From contig CAWJPJ010000006.1 in NCBI GenBank assembly GCA_963844715.1, positions 544,001 through 608,000 on the forward strand: a stretch of 64,000 nucleotides of DNA, read 5' to 3'. Below are positions 9,879-51,168 of the stretch, piece by piece. Position numbers and translations under genes: made by a program. Each line of letters starts with the position of its first letter. Within the stretch, counting starts at the first letter, position 1. Below the pieces are notes generated by a model. It ran no database searches. It was not told where the DNA came from and saw only the letters and a program-made list of their open reading frames with translations. Source of the stretch: an uncultured Phycisphaerales bacterium (GTDB lineage: Bacteria > Planctomycetota > Phycisphaerae > Tepidisphaerales > Tepidisphaeraceae).

Positions 9879-9952
9879 CATTCGGTCATTCGGTCATTCG
9901 GATTTGATTCGGATTTCGGGTTTCTGGTTTCGGATTTCCGCCGCAACGGCGG
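9879..9952. repeat. Right arm only of the heptamer IR element, followed by GC hairpin ccgccgcaacggcgg
   Basis: cattcggtcattcggtcattcggatttgattcggatttcgggtttctggtttcggatttc matches the right arms at 43.6, 45.0, 46.4, 48.5 and 49.3 kb. Confidence 0.85.
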
Positions 9953-11264: not shown

Positions 11265-11307
11265 GCGCAAGGAATGGTGCCGGCGGGAAGCGAATTATTC
11301 AAAATCG

Positions 11308-11414
11308 TTGGCACAGAGGACACGGAGGCCACAGAGGACACAGAGAAAGAATAAATTTAGTTTGATTGTTTTTTCTCTCTGTGCCCTCTGTGGTCTCTGC
11401 GGGCTCTGTGCCAA
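11308..11414. repeat. Nonamer (CACAGAGGN) inverted-repeat element, copy 1
   Basis: ttggcacagaggacacggaggccacagaggacacagagaaa - AT-rich loop - tctctgtgccctctgtggtctctgcgggctctgtgccaa. Confidence 0.85.
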
Positions 11415-11419
11415 TGTTT

Positions 11420-12334
11420 TTAAGAACTACCGATCCCCGACATGCGTACCAACACCTCATGTTCCGTGGTCCCCCAATCGGCGGCGATCTGTGCTTCTGT
11501 CAATCCATCCCCCAACAGCACCACTTCATCCCCAGCCGAATCGCCCGGGCCAGTTTCCGCGAACGCTGTCTGCATTCCCACTTCCAGAATCCGACGCCAT
11601 GCGCCGTTAATCAAGCACGGTCCCTTTCGAATTCCGTGCAGATATCCGCAGGGAATGACGCCGAAGTGCGGAACGTTAAACCCGCTATAACCGGCGGGCT
11701 TCCCGCCGGAATGTGTCTCCAATAAACGAGTCGAGACGCGGGCCGCGCCACGATATAGCGCGATCCCCGGGCGAACGGCATCCAGCCGCGCAGCGGGATC
11801 ATCCAGGAGCGCTGATCCCGCCGCGTGTAACTTCAGCCCTCGCCCTCCGAGCAATTTCTTAAGCTCCAACGCCTGCTCCCGATTTATCGCATGCGTAAGC
11901 GCCTCATCGCATCCTCCTGCCGCTAGGACTGCTTCGATGTTCTCCGCCGGACACGCAAACCGTCTCATCCCGGTATCGACGCAAAGAACCGGATGCGCAG
12001 ACCTCAGTCTCTTTGCCTCCCCCGCCGTCCAAACCGAAGGCCGCACACCCGCCGCGATAAATTCTCCCGGCTCGACATCCGGATGCGGACCCAGCGCCAA
12101 AATCCGCTTCGACGTAATTCCACTCAGCCCCGCGCCGATGGCTTCGGCCAAACCGAAAACCACAAACCCCTCAACTACATCCGCCAGCGCCCCCGCCACT
12201 TCGCGCGCTCCCAGTCCGTATGCATCGGCTTTGACGACCGCCAGAACCCCCACGCCGCAGCGGCTGCGGATTTCCTCGGCCGATCGTCTGATCCGGCCTA
12301 AATCCACCGTCACCGTGACTCGCTGCGATTTCAC
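11420..12334 (-). CDS. alr: Alanine racemase (short form)
   Basis: PLP lysine motif AVVKADAYGLG; VDTGMRR; VRPGIALY; AGYSG. Confidence 0.88.
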   Translation of the reverse strand: MKSQRVTVTVDLGRIRRSAEEIRSRCGVGVLAVVKADAYGLGAREVAGALADVVEGFVVFGLAEAIGAGLSGITSKRILALGPHPDVEPGEFIAAGVRPSVWTAGEAKRLRSAHPVLCVDTGMRRFACPAENIEAVLAAGGCDEALTHAINREQALELKKLLGGRGLKLHAAGSALLDDPAARLDAVRPGIALYRGAARVSTRLLETHSGGKPAGYSGFNVPHFGVIPCGYLHGIRKGPCLINGAWRRILEVGMQTAFAETGPGDSAGDEVVLLGDGLTEAQIAADWGTTEHEVLVRMSGIGSS

Positions 12335-13602: not shown

Positions 13603-13688
13603 GCCCTGAGCTTCCCAATTAAATGTGACGAGCAGAGAGTAACAGCCTATTTGCGCAAGGCAAGGAGTCGCTCACTCGCTCAAAATCC

Positions 13689-13817
13689 TTGGCACAGAGG
13701 GCATAGAGATCGCAGAGGGCACAGAGAAAGATAAGGTAAACGAAAACGCAAAACCAAAGCAATTAACAAAACGCATTTTCTCTGTGCCCTCCATGTCCTC
13801 CTTGTCCTATGTGCCAA
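13689..13817. repeat. Nonamer inverted-repeat element, copy 2
   Basis: ttggcacagagggcatagagatcgcagagggcacagagaaa - A-rich loop - ttttctctgtgccctccatgtcctccttgtcctatgtgccaa. Confidence 0.85.
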
Positions 13818-13915
13818 TGCTTTTTTGGCGAGCGCACAAGCCGCTCTCGGCGGCAATCGAGGGCAAATCGCGATCGAGACTTGCTTCCCCCCTCCCCACA
13901 CGCGACGATTCCGCC

Positions 13916-14915: not shown

Positions 14916-14992
14916 CGGGGCGTGGCGCAGTTTGGTTTACGCGCGCTTGACTGGGGGTCAAGAGGTCGCAGGTTCGAATCCTGTCGCCCCGA
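14916..14992 (+). tRNA. tRNA-Pro (GGG)
   Basis: Acceptor CGGGGCG/CGCCCCG; D stem GCGC/GCGC; anticodon arm CTTGA-CTGGGGG-TCAAG; T arm GCAGG-TTCGAAT-CCTGT; CCA not encoded. Confidence 0.95.
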
Positions 14993-14993
14993 T

Positions 14994-15233
14994 TTGTTTC
15001 ACCTATACGTCTTGCGAAGCCAGAAAACCGGCCGCAGATATGTCGGCTCGTGCGAGGACATCATCAACCGCCTTGATCAGCACAACCGTGGCGAGTCCAA
15101 ATCCACCAGACACGGCGTGCCCTGGAAATTGATCCACCACGAAGAATATGCGACCCGAGCGCAGGCAACGCAGCGAGAACGATATTTCAAAACTGGAAAG
15201 GGCCGAGAGGAACTCGACCACCTCAAGGTTTAG
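14994..15233 (+). CDS. Small stand-alone GIY-YIG nuclease, copy 1 (79 aa, TTG start)
   Basis: LYVLRS...YVGS; RLDQHNRG; STR-x3-PW; A-x2-RERYFKTGKGR. Confidence 0.85.
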   Translation: MFHLYVLRSQKTGRRYVGSCEDIINRLDQHNRGESKSTRHGVPWKLIHHEEYATRAQATQRERYFKTGKGREELDHLKV

Positions 15234-15282
15234 CGCGGTCGCCGCGGCGACAGGTCGCAGGTTCGAATCCTGTCGCCCCGAT

Positions 15283-15522
15283 TTGTTTCACCTATACGTC
15301 TTGCGAAGCCAGAAAACCGGCCGCAGATATGTCGGCTCGTGCGAGGACATCATCAACCGCCTTGATCAGCACAACCGTGGCGAGTCCAAATCCACCAGAC
15401 ACGGCGTGCCCTGGAAATTGATCCACCACGAAGAATATGCGACCCGAGCGCAGGCAACGCAGCGAGAACGATATTTCAAAACTGGAAAGGGCCGAGAGGA
15501 ACTCGACCACCTCAAGGTTTAG
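15283..15522 (+). CDS. Small GIY-YIG nuclease, copy 2
   Basis: Translation identical to copy 1. Confidence 0.85.
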   Translation: MFHLYVLRSQKTGRRYVGSCEDIINRLDQHNRGESKSTRHGVPWKLIHHEEYATRAQATQRERYFKTGKGREELDHLKV

Positions 15523-15571
15523 CGCGGTCGCCGCGGCGACAGGTCGCAGGTTCGAATCCTGTCGCCCCGAT

Positions 15572-15745
15572 TTGTTTCACGTATACGTCTTGCGAAGCCA
15601 GATAACTGGCGGCCGATACGTCGGGTTCTTGCGAGGACTACGCCGCCCGCCTTGATCAGCACAACCGAGGCGAATCCAAGTCGACCAGACATGGCGCGCC
15701 CTGGAAATTGGTCTACCAGGACGAATATACGACCCGGCCAGCGCG
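15572..15745 (+). pseudogene. GIY-YIG copy 3: diverged, frameshifted, truncated
   Basis: FHVYVLRSQITGGRYVG, then +1 shift, then RLDQHNRGESKSTRHGAPWKLVYQDEY; ends at the stop of the convergent gene. Confidence 0.85.
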
Positions 15746-42471: not shown

Positions 42472-43518
42472 ATGGCAATGCCCAATATCCCCAACGTCGA
42501 TCCCCAGATTCAGGCCGCCTGCGACCAGTTCCGCAAGGACTACCGCGCCCTTCAATCCGAGATCGGCAAAATCATCGTCGGCCACCAGGATATCGTCGAC
42601 GGCGTCCTCACCTGCCTATTCGTCGGCGGCCACGCCCTCCTCGAAGGCGTCCCCGGCCTGGGCAAAACCGCGCTCATTCGCGCCCTCGCCGACGCGCTTG
42701 ATCTCAAATTCAGCCGCATCCAGTTCACCCCCGACCTCATGCCCGCCGACGTCATCGGCACCAACGTCATCATGGAAGACGCGCAGGGCCACAGAAATTT
42801 CACCTTCATGCCCGGTCCCATCTTCGCCCAGATCGTCCTGGCCGACGAAATCAACCGAGCAACCCCCAAAACCCAATCCGCCCTCCTCGAAGCCATGCAG
42901 GAGCAGCAAGTCACCGCCGGCGGCCAAATGCGAAAACTCGAAAAACCCTTCTTCGTCATGGCCACCCAAAACCCGCTGGAGCAGGAAGGCACCTATCCTC
43001 TCCCTGAAGCCCAGCTGGACCGCTTCTTCTTCAAGCTGCTGGTCCAATACAGCGGCCGCGACGAACTGAAACAAATTCTCGACCGCACCACCACCAATCA
43101 AAAGGCCGAAGTCAAAGCCGTCATCAACTCCCAGCGCATCCTCGAACATCAGGAACTGGTCAAGCGCGTCCTCGTCGCCCCGCACGTCCAGGACTATGCC
43201 ATCCGCGTCGTCCTCGCCACACATCCCCAGGGCATCTATGCCGTAGGCATGACCAACCAGTTCCTCAGATTCGGCGCCAGCCCCCGCGCCGCCCAGGCCA
43301 TCACCCTGGCAAGCAAAGTCCGAGCACTGCTCGATGGCCGTTTCCACACCAGCTTTCAGGATGTCAAAGACATCGCCATCCCCGCCATGCGCCACAGAAT
43401 CATCCTGAATTTCGAAGGCGAAGCCGAAGGAATCACGACGGACATGATCCTGGAAAAAGTCCTCGCCGAAACCCCGCAAACGATCGAGGACGATTCGCCG
43501 GCAATGGTACGAAAGTAA
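42472..43518 (+). CDS. moxR: MoxR-family AAA+ ATPase
   Basis: GVPGLGKT; RIQFTPDLMPAD; DEINRA; ATQNPLEQEGTYPLPEAQLDRF; GASPR. Confidence 0.96.
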   Translation: MAMPNIPNVDPQIQAACDQFRKDYRALQSEIGKIIVGHQDIVDGVLTCLFVGGHALLEGVPGLGKTALIRALADALDLKFSRIQFTPDLMPADVIGTNVIMEDAQGHRNFTFMPGPIFAQIVLADEINRATPKTQSALLEAMQEQQVTAGGQMRKLEKPFFVMATQNPLEQEGTYPLPEAQLDRFFFKLLVQYSGRDELKQILDRTTTNQKAEVKAVINSQRILEHQELVKRVLVAPHVQDYAIRVVLATHPQGIYAVGMTNQFLRFGASPRAAQAITLASKVRALLDGRFHTSFQDVKDIAIPAMRHRIILNFEGEAEGITTDMILEKVLAETPQTIEDDSPAMVRK

Positions 43519-43523
43519 AGGCG

Positions 43524-43652
43524 GAAACCCGAATGACGAAACCCGAAACCAGAATCAAACCCGAAATCCGAATGAGCCATAGCACGCGCAGCAGTCATGG
43601 CTCATTCTGGTTTCGGATTTGATTCGGATTTCTGGTTTCGGGTTTCGGATTT
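43524..43652. repeat. Heptamer IR element, empty
   Basis: GAAACCC/GAAACCA/GAAATCC left arm; core gagccatagcacgcgcagcagtcatggctc; mirrored right arm. Confidence 0.92.
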
Positions 43653-43670
43653 ACGCGGAGGATTACCGCA

Positions 43671-44897
43671 ATGAAGAACCCATCGCTCCCCCTGGCTTGC
43701 CTGCTACTCCTGTCCATCTGCCCGCGTCTAATCGCCGCCACCCTCTTCGTCTCCCCCGACGGCCAACCGGGCTCCCCCGGAACCCAACAAAATCCCCTGC
43801 CTAGTCTCGTCGACGCCGCCGCCATCGCCCAGCCCGGCGATACCATCCAAATGCTCCCCGGCGTCTATCACGAACCCAAAACCGTCAACCTCTCCACCAA
43901 AGCCACCGAACAATCCCCCATCCACGTCACCGCCGACGTCGGCAATCCGGTCGTCCTCGACTTCTCCGCACAACCCGAAGACCGTGCCCACTCCATAGGC
44001 GTCGAACTCTCCGGCAACTACTGGTTTCTCACCAGCATCGAAGTCACCCACGCCGGAAGCTTCGGTTTCCACATCACCGGCAGTCACAACACCCTCGATC
44101 ACTGCATCTCCGCCGAGAATCGCAACAGCGGCACCCAGATCGAAACCAACGGCAGTTACACCCTCGTCGTCGACTGCCAGTCCTATCGCAACTTCGATCC
44201 CAAATCCTACGGCGAGGACGCCGACGGCTTCACCGCTAAGCACAAAATCGGCCCCGGCAATGAATTCCTCCGCTGCCGCTCCTATCAAAACGCCGACGAC
44301 GGCTTCGATTTCTGGATGGCCCCCGAGCCTATTCTGACCATCGACTGCGTCTCCTACCGCAACGGCTACAACATCTGGGGAATCTGGCCCTATGAAGGCG
44401 ACGGCAACGGCTTCAAGTTCGGCGGCAACTACGTCGCCGTCGCCCACGTCTGCCGCGGCTGCGTCTCTATCGAAAATCCCCTCGACGGCTTCGACCAAAA
44501 CCACAACATCGGACCCGTCACCGTCGAAGACTGCATCGCCATCCGCTGCGGAAAAGGCTTCTCCTTTCCAGAAGTCCCCCGCGCGGGACAAGTCGTCCTA
44601 AGAAACTGCACCAGCTTCGGCTGCCAAAACGTCCTCGAACCCGACATCGTCACAGAAAACTGCCACTGGTACCCAGACGTCCAGGCAGGCGTCCTCGGCC
44701 CCCTCCCCCTCCCCGGCCACCGAGACATCCCCGGCGCCGGCGCAGTTCCCACAACCGAGCCGTCCCCCATCATCGTCCCAGCCGAAGCCCCCGAATGGGG
44801 CTATCCGAACGATACGCCCAAACGCCGAGACCCCGAACTAGCCGACACCCGCGCCTCGGGCCAGGCAACGCGCCCCTCCGATTATCCGAACCCTTAA
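43671..44897 (+). CDS. Secreted right-handed beta-helix protein, pectate lyase PL9-like
   Basis: Signal peptide; PGDTI; DADGFTAK; NADDGFD; GDGNGFKFGGN; GFDQN. Confidence 0.88.
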   Translation: MKNPSLPLACLLLLSICPRLIAATLFVSPDGQPGSPGTQQNPLPSLVDAAAIAQPGDTIQMLPGVYHEPKTVNLSTKATEQSPIHVTADVGNPVVLDFSAQPEDRAHSIGVELSGNYWFLTSIEVTHAGSFGFHITGSHNTLDHCISAENRNSGTQIETNGSYTLVVDCQSYRNFDPKSYGEDADGFTAKHKIGPGNEFLRCRSYQNADDGFDFWMAPEPILTIDCVSYRNGYNIWGIWPYEGDGNGFKFGGNYVAVAHVCRGCVSIENPLDGFDQNHNIGPVTVEDCIAIRCGKGFSFPEVPRAGQVVLRNCTSFGCQNVLEPDIVTENCHWYPDVQAGVLGPLPLPGHRDIPGAGAVPTTEPSPIIVPAEAPEWGYPNDTPKRRDPELADTRASGQATRPSDYPNP

Positions 44898-44899
44898 AG

Positions 44900-45029
44900 C
44901 GAAACCCGAATGACGAAACCCGAAACCAGAATCAAGCCCGAAACCAGAATGAGCCATGATTGCGCGCATGCTATGGCCCATTCTGGTTTCGGATTTGATT
45001 CGGATTTCTGGTTTCTGGTTTCTGGTTTC
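44900..45029. repeat. Heptamer IR element, empty, core in opposite orientation
   Basis: Core gagccatgattgcgcgcatgctatggccc resembles the reverse complement of the cores at 43.57 and 48.50 kb. Confidence 0.92.
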
Positions 45030-45043
45030 CGCCCGGGGGCATC

Positions 45044-45937
45044 ATGACCCAAGTCACGTCTTCGAAACTTTTGGATTCCGCCTTCATGGCGCGCCTCGAC
45101 CAACTCGACATCATTTCGCGCAAAATGCTCGCCGGGAAAATGAAGGGCGAGCGCCGCTCCAAGCGCCGCGGCCAATCCGTCGAATTCGCCGACTACCGCA
45201 ACTACGTCGTCGGCGACGACCTCCGCTTCATCGACTGGAACATCTACGCCCGCCTAGACAAACTCTTTCTCAAACTTTTCCTCGAGGAAGAAGACCTCTC
45301 CCTCTACATCCTCCTCGACGTCAGCAAAAGCTGCGACTTCGGCGATCCCAACAAAGCCGTCTACATGAAACAAGTCGCCGCCGCCCTCGGCTACATCGGC
45401 CTGGTCAATTACAACCGCGTCCACATCAGCGCCATGTCCGAAGGCATCGTCGCCGAAACCGGCGCCCTCCGCGGCCGCCGCCGCATCGCCCAGATGATCG
45501 ACTTCATCGCCAATCTAAAACCAAAAGGCGCCAGCCATTTCTCCGAAGCCTGCAAACGATTCGCCCTGGCCCACCGCCAAAAAGGCGTCTGCGTCGTCCT
45601 CTCCGACTTCTTCGTAAAAGAAGGCTTCCAATCAGGCCTACGCTACGTCGCCGGCGGGAAATACGACCTCTTCTGCGTCCAGGTCCTCTCCCCCCAGGAA
45701 ATCCAACCCGAGTTAACCGGCGATTTAAAATTGAAGGACCTCGAAGACGCCGACACAGCCGAGGTATCGATCACCCAGCCGCTGATGGACAGATACAAGA
45801 AGAATCTGAATGCGTATTGTCTGTCGCTAAAAGAATATCTCACTCGCCGAGGCGGCACCTATCTGTTCAGCAGCACGGCCGTGCCGTTCGATACGCTGGT
45901 GTTGAACTATTTGCGCGAAAGAGGACTGCTTGGGTAA
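45044..45937 (+). CDS. DUF58-domain protein
   Basis: GQSVEFADYRNY-x2-GDDLRFIDW; DVSKS; LSDF. Confidence 0.95.
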   Translation: MTQVTSSKLLDSAFMARLDQLDIISRKMLAGKMKGERRSKRRGQSVEFADYRNYVVGDDLRFIDWNIYARLDKLFLKLFLEEEDLSLYILLDVSKSCDFGDPNKAVYMKQVAAALGYIGLVNYNRVHISAMSEGIVAETGALRGRRRIAQMIDFIANLKPKGASHFSEACKRFALAHRQKGVCVVLSDFFVKEGFQSGLRYVAGGKYDLFCVQVLSPQEIQPELTGDLKLKDLEDADTAEVSITQPLMDRYKKNLNAYCLSLKEYLTRRGGTYLFSSTAVPFDTLVLNYLRERGLLG

Positions 45938-45940
45938 GCT

Positions 45941-46410
45941 AAATCCGAAACCAGAAACCCGAATGACGAATCAAACCCGAAATCCGAATGACTCAACGGC
46001 CCCGCGCGGCGGAAAGAAGTTCGACCTTGAGGAGCGAACCGCCCGCTTTGGAAAGGCAATCATCGAGTTCGCACGGAAAGTGCCGCTTGATCCCATCACC
46101 GATCCGCTAATTCGCCAACTCGTTCGAAGCGGCACGAGCATCGGCGCAAATTACTGCGAGGCGGACGATGCGGAATCGAAGAAAGACTTTCATCACAAAA
46201 TCGGCATCTGCCGCAAAGAGTCGCGAGAAACAAAATACTGGTTGAGGATGATCGCCGCCGCCAACAAAGATTGTCGCGCCGACGCTCGCATTCTTTGGCA
46301 AGAAGCAAAGGAGCTAAACCTAATTTTCGGCGCCATCCGCCGGCGCAATTGACCTTCGGTCATTCGGATTTCGGATTTGATTCGTCATTCGGATTTCTGG
46401 TTTCTGGTTT
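45941..46410. mobile_element. Heptamer IR element enclosing a four-helix-bundle gene
   Basis: 52-bp arms at 45941-45992 and 46359-46410 are inverted repeats, 48/52 by my count. Confidence 0.8.
45963..46352 (+). CDS. Four helix bundle protein (23S rRNA IVP-like family)
   Basis: DLEERT; QLVRSGTSIGANYCEA; SKKDF-x2-K; KESRETKYWL; ATG lies inside the left repeat arm. Confidence 0.93.
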   Translation: MTNQTRNPNDSTAPRGGKKFDLEERTARFGKAIIEFARKVPLDPITDPLIRQLVRSGTSIGANYCEADDAESKKDFHHKIGICRKESRETKYWLRMIAAANKDCRADARILWQEAKELNLIFGAIRRRN

Positions 46411-46416
46411 GTAGAC

Positions 46417-48438
46417 ATGCCTCACTTCCTAAACACCCTCCCCGCCGCCATCGCCGCCGCAACGGCCATCCCTCTCTTAGTACTTTTATATTTCCTAAAA
46501 CTCCGCCGCCGCGAACAACCAGTCTCCTCCACGCTCCTCTGGAAAAAAGCCATCCAGGACCTACAAGTCAACGCCCCCTTCCAAAAGCTGCGCCGAAACC
46601 TTTTGTTGCTCTTACAACTCCTCATCCTCGCAGCACTCGTGCTCGCTCTTTCGCGCCCGGTGGCCAACTACACACCCGGCGCCGGTCCCCGAACCATCAT
46701 TTTGATCGATCGATCCGCCCCCATGTCCGCGACCGACATACCAAATGGCCGCACTAGATTGGACGAAGCCAAAAAACGCGCAGCCGACCTCGTCAAAACC
46801 CTCGGCCGCAATGGCGAAGCCATGGTCATCGCCTTTGACGACACCGCCCAAACCATCCAGCCTTTCACTAGCGACATCCCCGCCCTTCTCAACGGCATCG
46901 ACTCGATCCAACCCACCGATCGTCTCACCGATCTCGAGCCCGCCTACCGCCTCGCCAACGCGCAAGCCGCGTTCACCTCCGGCTATTCCGCGCGCAACCG
47001 CGTGCCGCCCGACGTCTATCTCTTTTCCGACGGCCGCGCCCACGACGCCGACAAGGCCAGCGTCGACGGCATCCTTCATTTCGAGCAGATCGGCTCCGAC
47101 ACGGCCCACAACATCGCCATCGTCGCCATGAACGCGAAGCGCGATTACCAGCAGCCGACGCACGTTCAGGTCTTTGCGCGTCTGGCCAATTATGGCCCCG
47201 ATCCCGTGGACGGCGTCCAGGTCCAGCTCAGCGTCGACGGCATGGTCCGCAGCATCGCCACCGTCAATCTTCTCCCCGAACGCTTTAACGACGATCAGCG
47301 CCGCGCGGCCATCGCCGCCGGCTTCTCCCCGCGCGACAGCATCGAATTCCCCGAACTCGAACTAACCGGCTCGGCAGTGGTCAAAGTCGATCAACTCGCC
47401 ACGGATAAAGACTCCCTCACCAGCGACGATTCCGCCTACGCCGTCGTCCCCCCTCCCAAAATCCTGGCCGTCCTCCTCGTCACCGACGGCAATTTCTTTC
47501 TCGAACGCGGCCTGGAAAGCCAGCGCCTCAAAGTTTACGACCGCATGTACCCCCAGGAATATCTCCAGCTCCCCCAAGCCACCGGCGGCGGAAAGAAGCT
47601 CCCCAAACCCTACGACGTCATCGTCTTCGACCGCGTCAATGACCTAAAAGCCCAGGATGTCCCCAAACAAGGCGCAGCCGTCTATTTCGGCTGCATCCCT
47701 CCCGGCCTGAAACTTCAAGTCGCCACCGACGTCACAGGCCAACCCAAAATCGACGAAGACAACGGCGTCCTAGATTGGAAACGCGACCACCCCATCCTCC
47801 GCCATATCAATCTCAACAAGCTTTACGTCGCCCACGCCACCGAAATTATTCCGTCCATGGACTCCGAAGTCCTCGTCGACGGCACCAATTGCCCGCTGGT
47901 CGTACTCCATCGCGAAAACCAAGCCGTCCATCTCATCATTCCCTTCGACGTAATCGACAGCAATTGGCCTCTGAACTCCACCTTCCCCGTCTTCCTCTAC
48001 CAGACCCTGCAATTCATGGCCCTGGGCACAGACCTCGAACTTCGCCCCAGCTACGCCCCCGGCACAAGCCTCCGCATCGCCCGCAGCACCCTCGACAAAA
48101 TCGACCCCAAAATCCGCATCATCACCATCACCGGCCCGGCCGGAACCCTCACCGCGACGATTCCCCCCACAGGCGATTTCGTCCTCCCCCCGCTGAACAA
48201 AGTCGGCCTCTACACCACCGACCCCCCCATCCCCCAATACGAAAAAATCGCCGTGAACCTTCTGGACGACACCGAAAGCAACATCGAACCCACCGACGTA
48301 GCCCCCGGCTCCGCCGGCCAAGTCGCCCCCGCCGCCCCAACCGGCGCAAGAAAAGAACTATGGCGCTGGCTAGTCGCCGCCGCGATACCTCTGTTGCTAA
48401 TCGAATGGTGGGTCTACACCCGCCGCGTGCACCTGTAG
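46417..48438 (+). CDS. BatA-domain + VWA membrane protein
   Basis: IPLLVLLYFLK...SSTLLW...LLLLLQ...LALSRP; DRSAPM; FSDG; C-terminal ELWRWL...LIEWWVY. Confidence 0.9.
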   Translation: MPHFLNTLPAAIAAATAIPLLVLLYFLKLRRREQPVSSTLLWKKAIQDLQVNAPFQKLRRNLLLLLQLLILAALVLALSRPVANYTPGAGPRTIILIDRSAPMSATDIPNGRTRLDEAKKRAADLVKTLGRNGEAMVIAFDDTAQTIQPFTSDIPALLNGIDSIQPTDRLTDLEPAYRLANAQAAFTSGYSARNRVPPDVYLFSDGRAHDADKASVDGILHFEQIGSDTAHNIAIVAMNAKRDYQQPTHVQVFARLANYGPDPVDGVQVQLSVDGMVRSIATVNLLPERFNDDQRRAAIAAGFSPRDSIEFPELELTGSAVVKVDQLATDKDSLTSDDSAYAVVPPPKILAVLLVTDGNFFLERGLESQRLKVYDRMYPQEYLQLPQATGGGKKLPKPYDVIVFDRVNDLKAQDVPKQGAAVYFGCIPPGLKLQVATDVTGQPKIDEDNGVLDWKRDHPILRHINLNKLYVAHATEIIPSMDSEVLVDGTNCPLVVLHRENQAVHLIIPFDVIDSNWPLNSTFPVFLYQTLQFMALGTDLELRPSYAPGTSLRIARSTLDKIDPKIRIITITGPAGTLTATIPPTGDFVLPPLNKVGLYTTDPPIPQYEKIAVNLLDDTESNIEPTDVAPGSAGQVAPAAPTGARKELWRWLVAAAIPLLLIEWWVYTRRVHL

Positions 48439-48440
48439 GA

Positions 48441-48574
48441 AGTCCGAAACCCGAAACCACCCGCCGCGGCGGGCGAATCAAACCCGAATTCCGAATGACC
48501 CATAGCATGCGCGCGGTCATGGCTCATTCTGGTTTCGGATTTGATTCGGATTTCGGGTTTCGGATTTCAGATTT
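48441..48574. repeat. Heptamer IR element, empty, with palindrome cccgccgcggcggg in the left arm
   Basis: Core gacccatagcatgcgcgcggtcatggctc; arms as in the other copies. Confidence 0.92.
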
Positions 48575-48610
48575 GAACCCCGTCCCCTCCCCATATATAA
48601 CCCCCACCCA

Positions 48611-49207
48611 ATGGCCCTCGTCGCGATACTCATCATCCTCAACGTCGCCATTTCCCTCTGGAACGCCTACGCCACAGGCAAAGCCTGGGTCGAAGCCAAA
48701 TTCGCCGGCGGCTGGCCCCGATTCATGACCTGGATGGGCGCCATCATGGCCGCCAGCGGCCTAAGCTGGTGCATCCTCATCCTTCTCGTCTTCGGATTCG
48801 TCAGCGCCGGCAAACTCACCCCCGATTGGGGCGGCGTCGCCCTCGATCTCGGCTACGTCATCCTCGTCCCCGGCATCATCTTCTCCGGCCTCATGATCAC
48901 CGTCGACAGTTGGGCCCGAGCCTATCGCACTAGAAAAGTCCTCGACCTCGGAATCGCCGGCTACAACACCTTCGCCCAGGTCTACAACACCTATCACGCC
49001 ATCCAAGGCATGGGCCCCGCGCTCGGCCACGTCCTTTCCGCATTCCTAGGCAAAGGCAAAAAAAGCGGCGCCGCCATCGTCATCGCCCTGGTCATCCTCG
49101 CGCTCGCGCTCGGCATCATCATCACCGCCGCCATCATCCACCACGTGGCCGCGAGCACCCCTCTCCCGACCTACGAAGAAGCCCAACGCCAATTGCAACC
49201 GGCGTGA
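48611..49207 (+). CDS. Hypothetical membrane protein (about 4-5 TMs)
   Basis: Hydrophobic 198-aa ORF with host-like codon usage. Confidence 0.75.
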   Translation: MALVAILIILNVAISLWNAYATGKAWVEAKFAGGWPRFMTWMGAIMAASGLSWCILILLVFGFVSAGKLTPDWGGVALDLGYVILVPGIIFSGLMITVDSWARAYRTRKVLDLGIAGYNTFAQVYNTYHAIQGMGPALGHVLSAFLGKGKKSGAAIVIALVILALALGIIITAAIIHHVAASTPLPTYEEAQRQLQPA

Positions 49208-49219
49208 AAACACCGCGTT

Positions 49220-49349
49220 CGAAATCCGAAACCAGAAACCCGAAACCAGAATCAAATCCGAGATCAGAATGACCGAAGGGCACCCGACGCGATTCGGTCA
49301 TTTGGGCATTCGGATTTGATTCTGATTTCGGGTTTCGGGTTTCGGATTT
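49220..49349. repeat. Heptamer IR element, empty, different core
   Basis: gaaatccgaaaccagaaacccgaaaccagaatcaaatccg...gaccgaa-loop-ttcggtc...ggatttgattctgatttcgggtttcgggtttcggattt. Confidence 0.92.
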
Positions 49350-49915
49350 TATTTCAGCAGATGATGCGTTATCAGCGCATACGCCGTAACCGCCACTCCA
49401 ATCGCCGCCGCCACCACGCCGCCGTAGAAAGCCGACCGTCTTTTCGTCAGCGCCGCCACCGACGCCAGCGCGATCCCCATCTGCACCGCCATTCCCCCGT
49501 ATGAAAGCAAATCCTTCTCCGACATCCGCCGAAACGCCCTGGCCAGAAAATCCTCCCGCTCGTCCTCCAACGCCTTGGCCTGCGTCCGCAGCAGCGGCTC
49601 GCGCGTCCGCGCCTGCTGATCGAAATCCGTCATCTCTTTTCGCTGCGCATCGGTGATCGAGCTACCCGAAGCCAGTTGCGACTCGACGATCCGTGCCTTG
49701 ATGCTATTGGCCTGAAACTCCGCCCATTCATCCGAAGCCTGCGCCTGCTTGAGCACCGCCTGGTTGCTGAAATAGATCGCCTCGTTGGAAAGATTCGTGC
49801 ACCGCACAGTGAGATACCCGCCCAGTGCCGCCAGCACGCCCGTGAGCAGGGCCACATATTTCATCCAGCGCGGCGCCGTCGGATCAGCCGCGGCTTTGGC
49901 CGTCAGTTGTGTCAT
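49349..49915 (-). CDS. DUF4337-like membrane protein
   Basis: VALLTGVLAA; ASDEWAEFQANSIK; QMGIALASVAALT. Confidence 0.8.
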   Translation of the reverse strand: MTQLTAKAAADPTAPRWMKYVALLTGVLAALGGYLTVRCTNLSNEAIYFSNQAVLKQAQASDEWAEFQANSIKARIVESQLASGSSITDAQRKEMTDFDQQARTREPLLRTQAKALEDEREDFLARAFRRMSEKDLLSYGGMAVQMGIALASVAALTKRRSAFYGGVVAAAIGVAVTAYALITHHLLK

Positions 49916-49942
49916 GCGAATTCCACTCCTTCCAAGAGGAGA

Positions 49943-51168
49943 TTACTCGACGCTCGCGTCGATACCCGAACTTTTCAAAGTCTGCCTCACCTGCTCGATA
50001 TGCCCGGCGTCGCGCGTTTCCAGCACGCACGAGACCACCACCCGCGCCACATCCGCCGGGCCGAAATTCCGATCATGATTCACTTCCTTGATGCTCGCCC
50101 CCGTCCCCGCCAGGATTCCCGCCAGTTGCGCCAGCGACCCCGGCCGATCCAGCAGCCGCGCCCTCACCCGGCACAATCTCCCCTCCGCCGCTAATCCGCG
50201 CTCGATCACGCGCGAGATGACCGTCACGTCGATGTTCCCGCCGCTCAGAACAAGCACCACATTCTTCCCCGCCAATCCCATTTCTTTATTCATCGCCGCC
50301 GCCAACGGCACCGCTCCCGCCCCCTCGACCACCATCTTTTCCATTTCGAGGAATCGAAGGATCGAAAGCGCGATCTGTCCCTCGTCCACGAGCATAACCC
50401 GATCCACGAGCCGCGAGACGATCTCAAAACAAATCTTCCCCCCTTCCGCCACTGCCAGTCCATCCGCCAGCGTCGGCTGCGCATCGATCTTCACCAGCTT
50501 CTTCCGTCGAATCGATTCAAACATCGTCGGCGCATGCTCCGGCTCAACCCCGATCACCCGCACCTCCGGCTTCAATCCCTTCACCGCCACCGCGATGCCC
50601 GAAATCAGCCCCCCGCCCCCGATCGGGACGACGATTGCATCCACACTCGGCAAATCTTCCAATATCTCCAACCCGATCGTCCCCTGCCCCGCAATGATAT
50701 CCACATCGTCGAACCCCGAAACCATCGTCAGATGCCGTCTCTCCGCCAGGTCCAAAGCCAGCGCCTTGGATTCCTGATAGCTCTCCCCATGCAGAATCAC
50801 CTCCGCCCCAAACGACCGGCAATTCGCGACTTTCGTCAGCGGCGCCCATTTCGGCATCACAATCGTCGCCGGTATCCCCAGGAGTTTTGAATGATACGCC
50901 AGCCCCAATCCATGATTCCCCGCCGACGCGGCTATCACGCCCGACTTGTTCTGATGCTCATCCAGAAGCAGCAGCTTGTTCCGCGCCCGCGCTCCTTGAA
51001 GCTCCCCGTAAGTTGCAAATGCTCGAGCTTGCAATAAACATTGCATCCACACAGCCGGCTCAGTTGCAAGGAATACGGGCACGGACTGCGATAAATCGCA
51101 TCCCCGATCCGCCCCCGCGCGGCGCGAATCATCTCCGGCGAAACCGGCAAATCCGGGCTTTGCGTCAT
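49943..51168 (-). CDS. ilvA: Threonine ammonia-lyase with C-terminal ACT domain, frameshift near 50990
   Basis: [46 protein letters not shown]. Confidence 0.92.

Follow-up and report, generated by a model that had tools for sequence, protein, structure and literature searches.

A four-helix-bundle gene between inverted heptamer arms and its gene-less relatives: a likely mobile element family without a recognisable transposase

ORF-bearing intervening sequences (IVS) of 23S rRNA genes contain heptamers and 28-bp terminal inverted repeats, as described for Coxiella, and are excised by RNase III, while their mobility is put forward as a hypothesis only in the accessible text of PMC4990558. In the IVS of Coxiella and Leptospira, an ORF of the S23p family (PF05635) lies between the terminal inverted repeats and is preceded by tandem heptamers before its start, and the sections available of the same source describe a member of this family, Xcc0516, as a homopentamer (PMC4990558). 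A protein of similar fold, Avd, is an RNA-binding cofactor of a reverse transcriptase (bioRxiv 10.1101/2023.10.23.563531, PMC6182149; both in part), and all five of its protomers take part in binding a stem-loop (bioRxiv 10.1101/2023.10.23.563531). The REPIN/RAYT systems combine a long-resident gene with cognate repeats and many extragenic inverted doublets with a spacer; their repeats come in several flavours, each with a gene of its own next to it, and clustering and decayed singlets are seen, as far as the accessible parts of the sources go (PMC3116915, bioRxiv 10.1101/2021.07.10.451892). Finally, intergenic heptamer arrays of other units are known from Xanthomonas (GGGAATC; PMC4692102) and the Beggiatoaceae (TAACTGA; PMC4679880), those of Xanthomonas being often arranged as convergent inverted pairs near stop codons, according to the portions available.

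The cassette described here lies in a window of 64,000 nucleotides, the whole stretch of DNA that was analysed, and the nearest named relatives of its locus are Tepidisphaeraceae and Phycisphaerales records. As the earlier note had claimed, two 52-bp arms built from heptamers form an inverted repeat that matches at 48 of its 52 bases, with the ATG of a four-helix-bundle gene inside the left arm (Table 1). Each arm consists of a few degenerate heptamers, the core GAATCAA, which shifts their phase, and two or three inner units, and the gene-bearing pair has the best-matched arms among all 46 pairs of the genome. The cassette makes up the whole gap between the DUF58 and batA-like genes of a moxR operon, with 3 nt left after the DUF58 stop. 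Its terminal inverted repeats are able to form a stem around the ORF, as in the 23S IVS. It differs from these in being located in a protein-coding operon, in having about 45 gene-less sister pairs and in showing no sign of selection for a sense-strand RNA helix. There is no rRNA match at 43000-50000 and the cassette lies between DUF58 and batA-like genes, so it is outside any rRNA gene, and Rfam returned only miRNA-precursor matches, far below gathering scores.

Table 1. Coordinates of the cassette, of its host operon and of related arms (window positions unless a contig of this genome, G000, is given)
Feature	Position	Strand	Remarks
Left arm	45941..45992	+	degenerate heptamers GAAACCC/GAAACCA/GAAATCC/GAATGAC around phase-shifting core GAATCAA; start codon inside
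Four-helix-bundle gene, 129 aa	45963..46352	+	ATG at 45963, TGA ends at 46352; TIGR02436/PF05635; four-helix model closest to 2RLD and 2GSC
Right arm	46359..46410	-	48/52 complementary to left arm; 6 nt upstream of batA-like ATG
DUF58 host gene, upstream of cassette	45044..45937	+	
BatA/VWA host gene, downstream of cassette	46417..48438	+	
MoxR AAA ATPase host gene, same operon	42472..43518	+	
Gene-less arm pair behind moxR stop	43524..43652	.	not seen behind moxR in congeners G001, G002
Gene-less arm pair between pectate-lyase-like gene and DUF58	44901..45029	.	G002 has pair at same site
Gene-less arm pair behind batA-like stop	48439..48574	.	short palindrome nested 48460-48473; none at site in G002; similar pair in G019
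Gene-less arm pair between two convergent stops	49221..49349	.	none at site in G001
Lone arm between two convergent ORFs	9882..9938	-	3-6 nt from one stop, 15 nt from other
Direct (not inverted) 6-mer arrays around four-helix-bundle gene	G000 C5:92689-92931		
True 23S rRNA intervening sequence	G000 C4:133101-133425 (L007)		heptamer arms and frameshifted four-helix-bundle ORF

The encoded protein matches TIGR02436 with 70.2 bits (cut-off 24; scanned from residue 9) and PF05635 with 52.3 bits (cut-off 33.8), and its predicted structure consists of four helices (pLDDT 89.8), with 2RLD (Z 16.1) and 2GSC (Z 14.5), both S23p structures, as best structural matches. With profile scores above both cut-offs and a 2RLD/2GSC-like fold, it falls within the S23p / 23S_rRNA_IVP family. 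The kinship with S23p proteins stated in the earlier note is thus upheld by the fold, and the likeness to Avd is less distinct. Both proteins are basic and of similar fold (for Avd, see the available parts of bioRxiv 10.1101/2023.10.23.563531, PMC6182149 and PMC10053308); the comparison of Avd with the model gives VIA Z 12.1, an rmsd of 2.4 over 104 residues and a TM of about 0.6-0.7, with a Z that is tied with, and no higher than, that of unrelated bundles. The cassette protein, with a net charge of +8, is only 14% identical to Avd, and the cassette has no reverse transcriptase, template repeat or variable repeat. Its neighbours are the DUF58 and batA-like genes and the genome, which is 85% complete, has no PF00078 match, in contrast to a diversity-generating retroelement. 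As regards catalytic motifs, neither HUH nor YxDD was present in 59 sequences. By analogy with Avd, the cassette protein would serve as a pentameric scaffold rather than an enzyme.

A search of the genome with an arm profile retrieved 131 arms at E<0.01 and none in the locally shuffled genome, and therefore the arms are not due to chance. They are organised as 46 head-to-head pairs and 39 singles, with no tail-to-tail pair, so that the five gene-less relatives counted in the earlier note do exist and are an undercount; those of the window are located where it had placed them, are intergenic and lie next to stop codons, the four pairs starting 0-13 nt past a stop. All 46 pairs are extragenic inverted doublets, none being called inside a gene; besides the one with the gene, two are occupied by ordinary IS insertions and a further one has a second element nested in it. 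The 42 short gene-less copies are all distinct in sequence, with no master sequence, and the two arms of one copy are barely more similar to each other than to foreign arms (31 vs 29, p=0.06). The ends of 33 of the 46 pairs are within 20 nt of a stop codon and those of 7 within 20 nt of a start, distances that depend on a crude custom gene caller (77% coding). The excess at stop codons survives five null models, whose expected share ranges from 0.07 to 0.43 according to the assumptions (29/32 vs 0.43 in the strictest). Elements are also clustered, with a neighbour at 5 kb or less for 43 of 85 (random mean, 13.6), and local copying is not supported as a cause, near pairs being no more similar than far ones (median 53 vs 51, p=0.47). 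No target duplication was detected at the 46 pairs, where flanks match over 3.72 nt as against 3.76 in controls, nor any fixed outer base. A 26-bp palindrome is situated right at the GAATC core of arms in all five of its occurrences (C6:467176, C6:1221425, C8:264367, C8:690131 and C4:246193 of this genome, G000).

The same genome harbors seven genes of the four-helix-bundle family, from eight profile matches. By eye, four of them are flanked by inverted periodic arms whose unit differs from gene to gene, one has direct 6-mer arrays and two have an upstream array only. One of the seven is the gene of the true intervening sequence in the 23S rRNA gene. Further arrays belong to other arm classes, as the TTGCCAG type (39 vs 0 in the reversed control). 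Two of the pairs have long spacers, and the idea that these carry cargo was discarded, since the spacers are ordinary IS insertions with their own ends, presumably of the IS630 and IS5 families to judge from their motifs. IS630-like or IS5-like elements are found in or beside arm pairs at G000 C6:302439-303588, C6:490370-491400 and C7:1235497-1236510, which suggests that arm pairs attract or tolerate IS insertion. The Y1 tyrosine transposases of the genome, five genes in all, were considered as partners of the arms and dismissed, as none of them has an arm within 1.5 kb, and no transposase was found beside arms.

The history of the cassette can be followed at the DUF58-batA junction, which was compared in 22 syntenic loci including this genome; eight more loci show DUF58 with no batA in view. 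Four of the 22 junctions are empty, seven contain this cassette (two of them chosen because the gene is present, and the G013 copy being internally deleted), one contains an unrelated cassette with TGAGTGC arms and a four-helix gene of a distant, separate clade, three contain gene-less repeat pairs and seven other DNA. In the empty ones (G003, G004, G027 and G030; G004 is unpublished, and the claim rests on the other three) the two genes overlap or are 2-5 nt apart. The reciprocal case also exists, as G016 and G024 carry a cassette of this clade at a junction that in G000 measures 4 nt from stop to start. Among the 15 element loci of G002, ten are syntenic in G000, five of them without arms, two with another repeat and three shared or as remnants, and the two G001 loci compared with G000 correspond to a GxxExxY cassette at one site and a remnant at the other; the genes of the genomes compared share about 70-85% identity, too little for the exact points of insertion to be read. 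Empty sites, which the earlier note had proposed to look for in relatives, exist at the DUF58-batA junction, and no pair was seen behind moxR in G001 and G002; target duplications, which it had also proposed to look for, were not seen at the full and empty junctions, although these have diverged. Orthologous sites thus vary and are not fixed like ordinary terminators, and, on comparison of the sequences, insertion and loss of elements at shared junctions are well supported. This is a family of repeat-armed insertions with one gene-bearing and many gene-less copies, present or absent at the same junctions in kin, in agreement with the gene-bearing and gene-less element family that had been proposed.

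Six junction copies of the gene differ by a dN of 0.16-0.35 and a dS of at least 1.7 or saturated, values that mark the gene-bearing copy as old at the DUF58-batA site and as conserved under purifying selection. This saturation, together with the fact that all 42 short gene-less copies are different, indicates that there has been no recent burst. The tree is compatible with a single or a repeated origin at the junction (p-AU 0.18). Two pattern scans of metagenomes for a short DUF58-batA junction gave no match. The DNA reads of one study (four runs, patchy coverage) yielded one 511-nt contig that reproduces the cassette and no contig linking DUF58 to batA across it, the joints being short-sided and likely from other copies or organisms, and a single query of viral contigs found no relative. 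In the moxR operon of a Phycisphaeraceae record (L076:1405-3327), moxR has a four-helix cassette behind it and DUF58 a GxxExxY-like one with 9-mer arms; such cassettes accumulate at the junctions of this operon. In the window, a pectate-lyase-like gene (43671-44897) is placed inside the moxR-DUF58 operon between two gene-less pairs, and many different genes occupy this junction in kin.

It could be argued that the pairs act behind stop codons as REP-like hairpins, with an influence on mRNA stability, termination or translational coupling, the protein being a binding factor beneficial to the host and the turnover of sites a slow drift. In that sense, the gene is under purifying selection at one junction across genera, 17 of the 46 pairs fill an entire gene junction and similar inverted heptamer pairs near Xanthomonas stop codons are mostly transcribed, in the accessible text of PMC4692102. 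Such a domesticated role appears quite improbable to us, given that the same junction is empty or has unrelated repeats in kin, that three of the seven family genes of the genome are broken by a stop or frameshift (assembly error being possible), that 28 of 41 relatives yielded no copy of the gene at clade-level identity and that no RNA-strand signature is present.

The association of arms with genes of this family extends across phyla, as the earlier note had predicted. Among the best 80 homologous loci, from Planctomycetota, Verrucomicrobiota, Patescibacteria and others, 79 could be scored, and in 76 of these the inverted-repeat score exceeds the maximum of 73 same-locus controls; loci of other protein clades pass the same score in 25 of 32 cases. 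The gene is old at the DUF58-batA junction in seven loci and occupies other sites in kin, and the neighbour genes of the homologous loci form about 65 clusters among 77-78 loci, a crude grouping that overstates diversity and missed one known shared neighbour. The arm class of the cassette is found beside 75 of 83 proteins of its clade and one of 32 others (28/35 and 1/31 in GC-matched sets), with a unit pattern chosen once the data were known. The class of the arms follows the clade of the protein, a match that could also be explained by plain co-inheritance. In 41 relatives, the exact arm core occurs in 11, the clade gene (at least 54% identity) in 13 and both in seven, so that the cognate gene is present in 7 of 11 relatives with the core and 6 of 30 without it, a difference that the Fisher p of 0.02 overstates, as kin are not independent. 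Besides G019, three more relatives carry the core but not the gene, and the exact core is missing from six gene-bearing ones. Among 150 other genomes of the phylum, several core matches were found in one only, which is among the seven with the gene. An arm pair of G019 (L245:1330-1833) surrounds a 420-bp spacer, a non-coding, largely palindromic nested element.

These data also bear on the possibility that the protein is a passenger, the gene having been caught once between two arms and the arm pairs owing their spread to slippage, gene conversion or an unlinked transposase. That almost all sampled genes of the family have arms, of a class that differs from clade to clade, argues against it, as do the distance of all five Y1 transposases from any arm and the absence of target duplication. 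It draws some support from the copies, which are mosaic and all different, from the nested IS630 and IS5-family elements and other repeats within pairs, from the very presence of Y1 genes and from G019 (93% complete), which is rich in arms, with 54 core matches, and in which no gene of the cassette clade was found. On balance, we take the passenger explanation to be improbable.

A stem that is selected as sense-strand RNA is expected to favour G·U over A·C mismatches. G·U and A·C are balanced in the 76 loci (113 vs 125), in the 22 stop-oriented pairs of the genome, the gene-bearing one included (42 vs 45), and in 25 loci of other clades (33 vs 29). The sense duplex is more stable than the antisense one in 38 of 76 loci, and unit use is equal on the 5' and 3' sides in 19 oriented copies. 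The element is strand-symmetric. A long stem is predicted in the cassette transcript (z = -6.9) and in gene-less copies (z = -6.8 to -11.9), although these scores carry little weight, as every inverted repeat folds. The data therefore lend no support to selection for the IVS-like stem of about 50 bp that the earlier note placed in the mRNA, nor to the possible spread through RNA that it suggested, sense and antisense folding equally well.

Such an RNA route would involve pairing of the arms in the mRNA, excision of the cassette by RNase III as in the 23S IVS, transfer of the RNA by an Avd-like pentamer to a borrowed reverse transcriptase and reinsertion near stops. Besides the predicted stem, the heptamer-armed four-helix-bundle cassette that lies in this genome's own 23S rRNA gene speaks for it, as do the Coxiella IVS with its repeats and RNase III excision (PMC4990558, in part), the role of Avd with reverse transcriptase and the stop-codon preference of the pairs, which a route coupled to transcription or translation would explain no less well than a DNA route. 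The balance of G·U and A·C is also compatible with an RNA intermediate that tolerates mismatches. Nevertheless, with no strand preference in any of the comparisons above, no PF00078 match in the 85%-complete genome and an excision that, without religation, would sever the operon mRNA, this route is considered unlikely.

The model that we favour, plausible though falling just short of probable, is patterned on the REPIN/RAYT pair, with the four-helix-bundle protein, which is predicted to bind the heptamer arms of its own class and would be needed for their spread, enabling enzymes of the host to copy them as a DNA hairpin. The arm pair is likely copied slowly and with no target duplication, as a strand-symmetric DNA hairpin, through a presumed DNA intermediate, and the catalyst is probably host-encoded. 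The features of REPINs and RAYTs listed at the outset are all found here, from the long-resident gene with cognate repeats and extragenic doublets to the several flavours, the clustering and the decayed singlets. The differences are a four-helix bundle instead of a tyrosine transposase, heptamer-array arms instead of short palindromes, a gene located at many different sites across taxa and the lack of a master sequence. MITEs and foldback elements are also gene-less inverted-repeat copies of a gene-bearing element, and foldback arms consist of short tandem units. The cassette family, however, has no target duplication, fixed terminal bases or transposase. The IVS, REPIN, MITE and DGR classes each have a defining feature that it lacks, so it belongs to none of them, and it is likely a mobile element family without a recognisable transposase.

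The separate parts of this system are already in print, and they come together here as the IVS design, placed between protein genes and accompanied by a REPIN-like population. No paper was found that connects the S23p family with gene-less copies or, outside rRNA, with heptamer-armed cassettes, in a literature search that covered few subscription journals and main texts rather than supplements. In the accessible text of the Beggiatoaceae paper (PMC4679880), helix bundles, S23 and IVS have zero mentions, no link to a four-helix-bundle gene is apparent in that of the Xanthomonas paper (PMC4692102), and the available parts of PMC4853749 and PMC8700078 contain no link to heptamer-armed four-helix cassettes. 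Two questions are hereby joined, the role of S23p/four-helix-bundle proteins and the origin of bacterial intergenic heptamer repeats, both of which are testable, and the match of clade to arm enables a binding experiment whose non-cognate controls come from the same genome. Should the protein prove to drive the spread, the elements would move by a mechanism in which no known catalytic module takes part, and this would also suggest where the ORF-bearing rRNA intervening sequences, and perhaps Avd, come from.

A wider proposal, which we advance tentatively as possible and less than probable, is that these are multi-phylum mobile elements without a transposase, recombinase or reverse transcriptase of their own, in which each clade of Avd-like pentamers reads its own heptamer code, the arms seed the intergenic heptamer repeats in which bacterial genomes are enriched, the rRNA IVS are copies that landed in 23S genes and the GxxExxY genes with 9-mer arms constitute a parallel system. 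The genome has four GxxExxY genes with inverted arms of roughly 9-mers and similar design, a parallel system with another protein family. Gene-less inverted pairs of CACAGAG-type 9-mers are present in the window at 11301-11421 and 13682-13824, and this arm type also flanks the GxxExxY gene at G000 C5:125275. Elsewhere in the window (14916-15736), a tRNA-Pro gene is followed by three tandem 289-bp copies, each of which starts with the 3' part of the tRNA.
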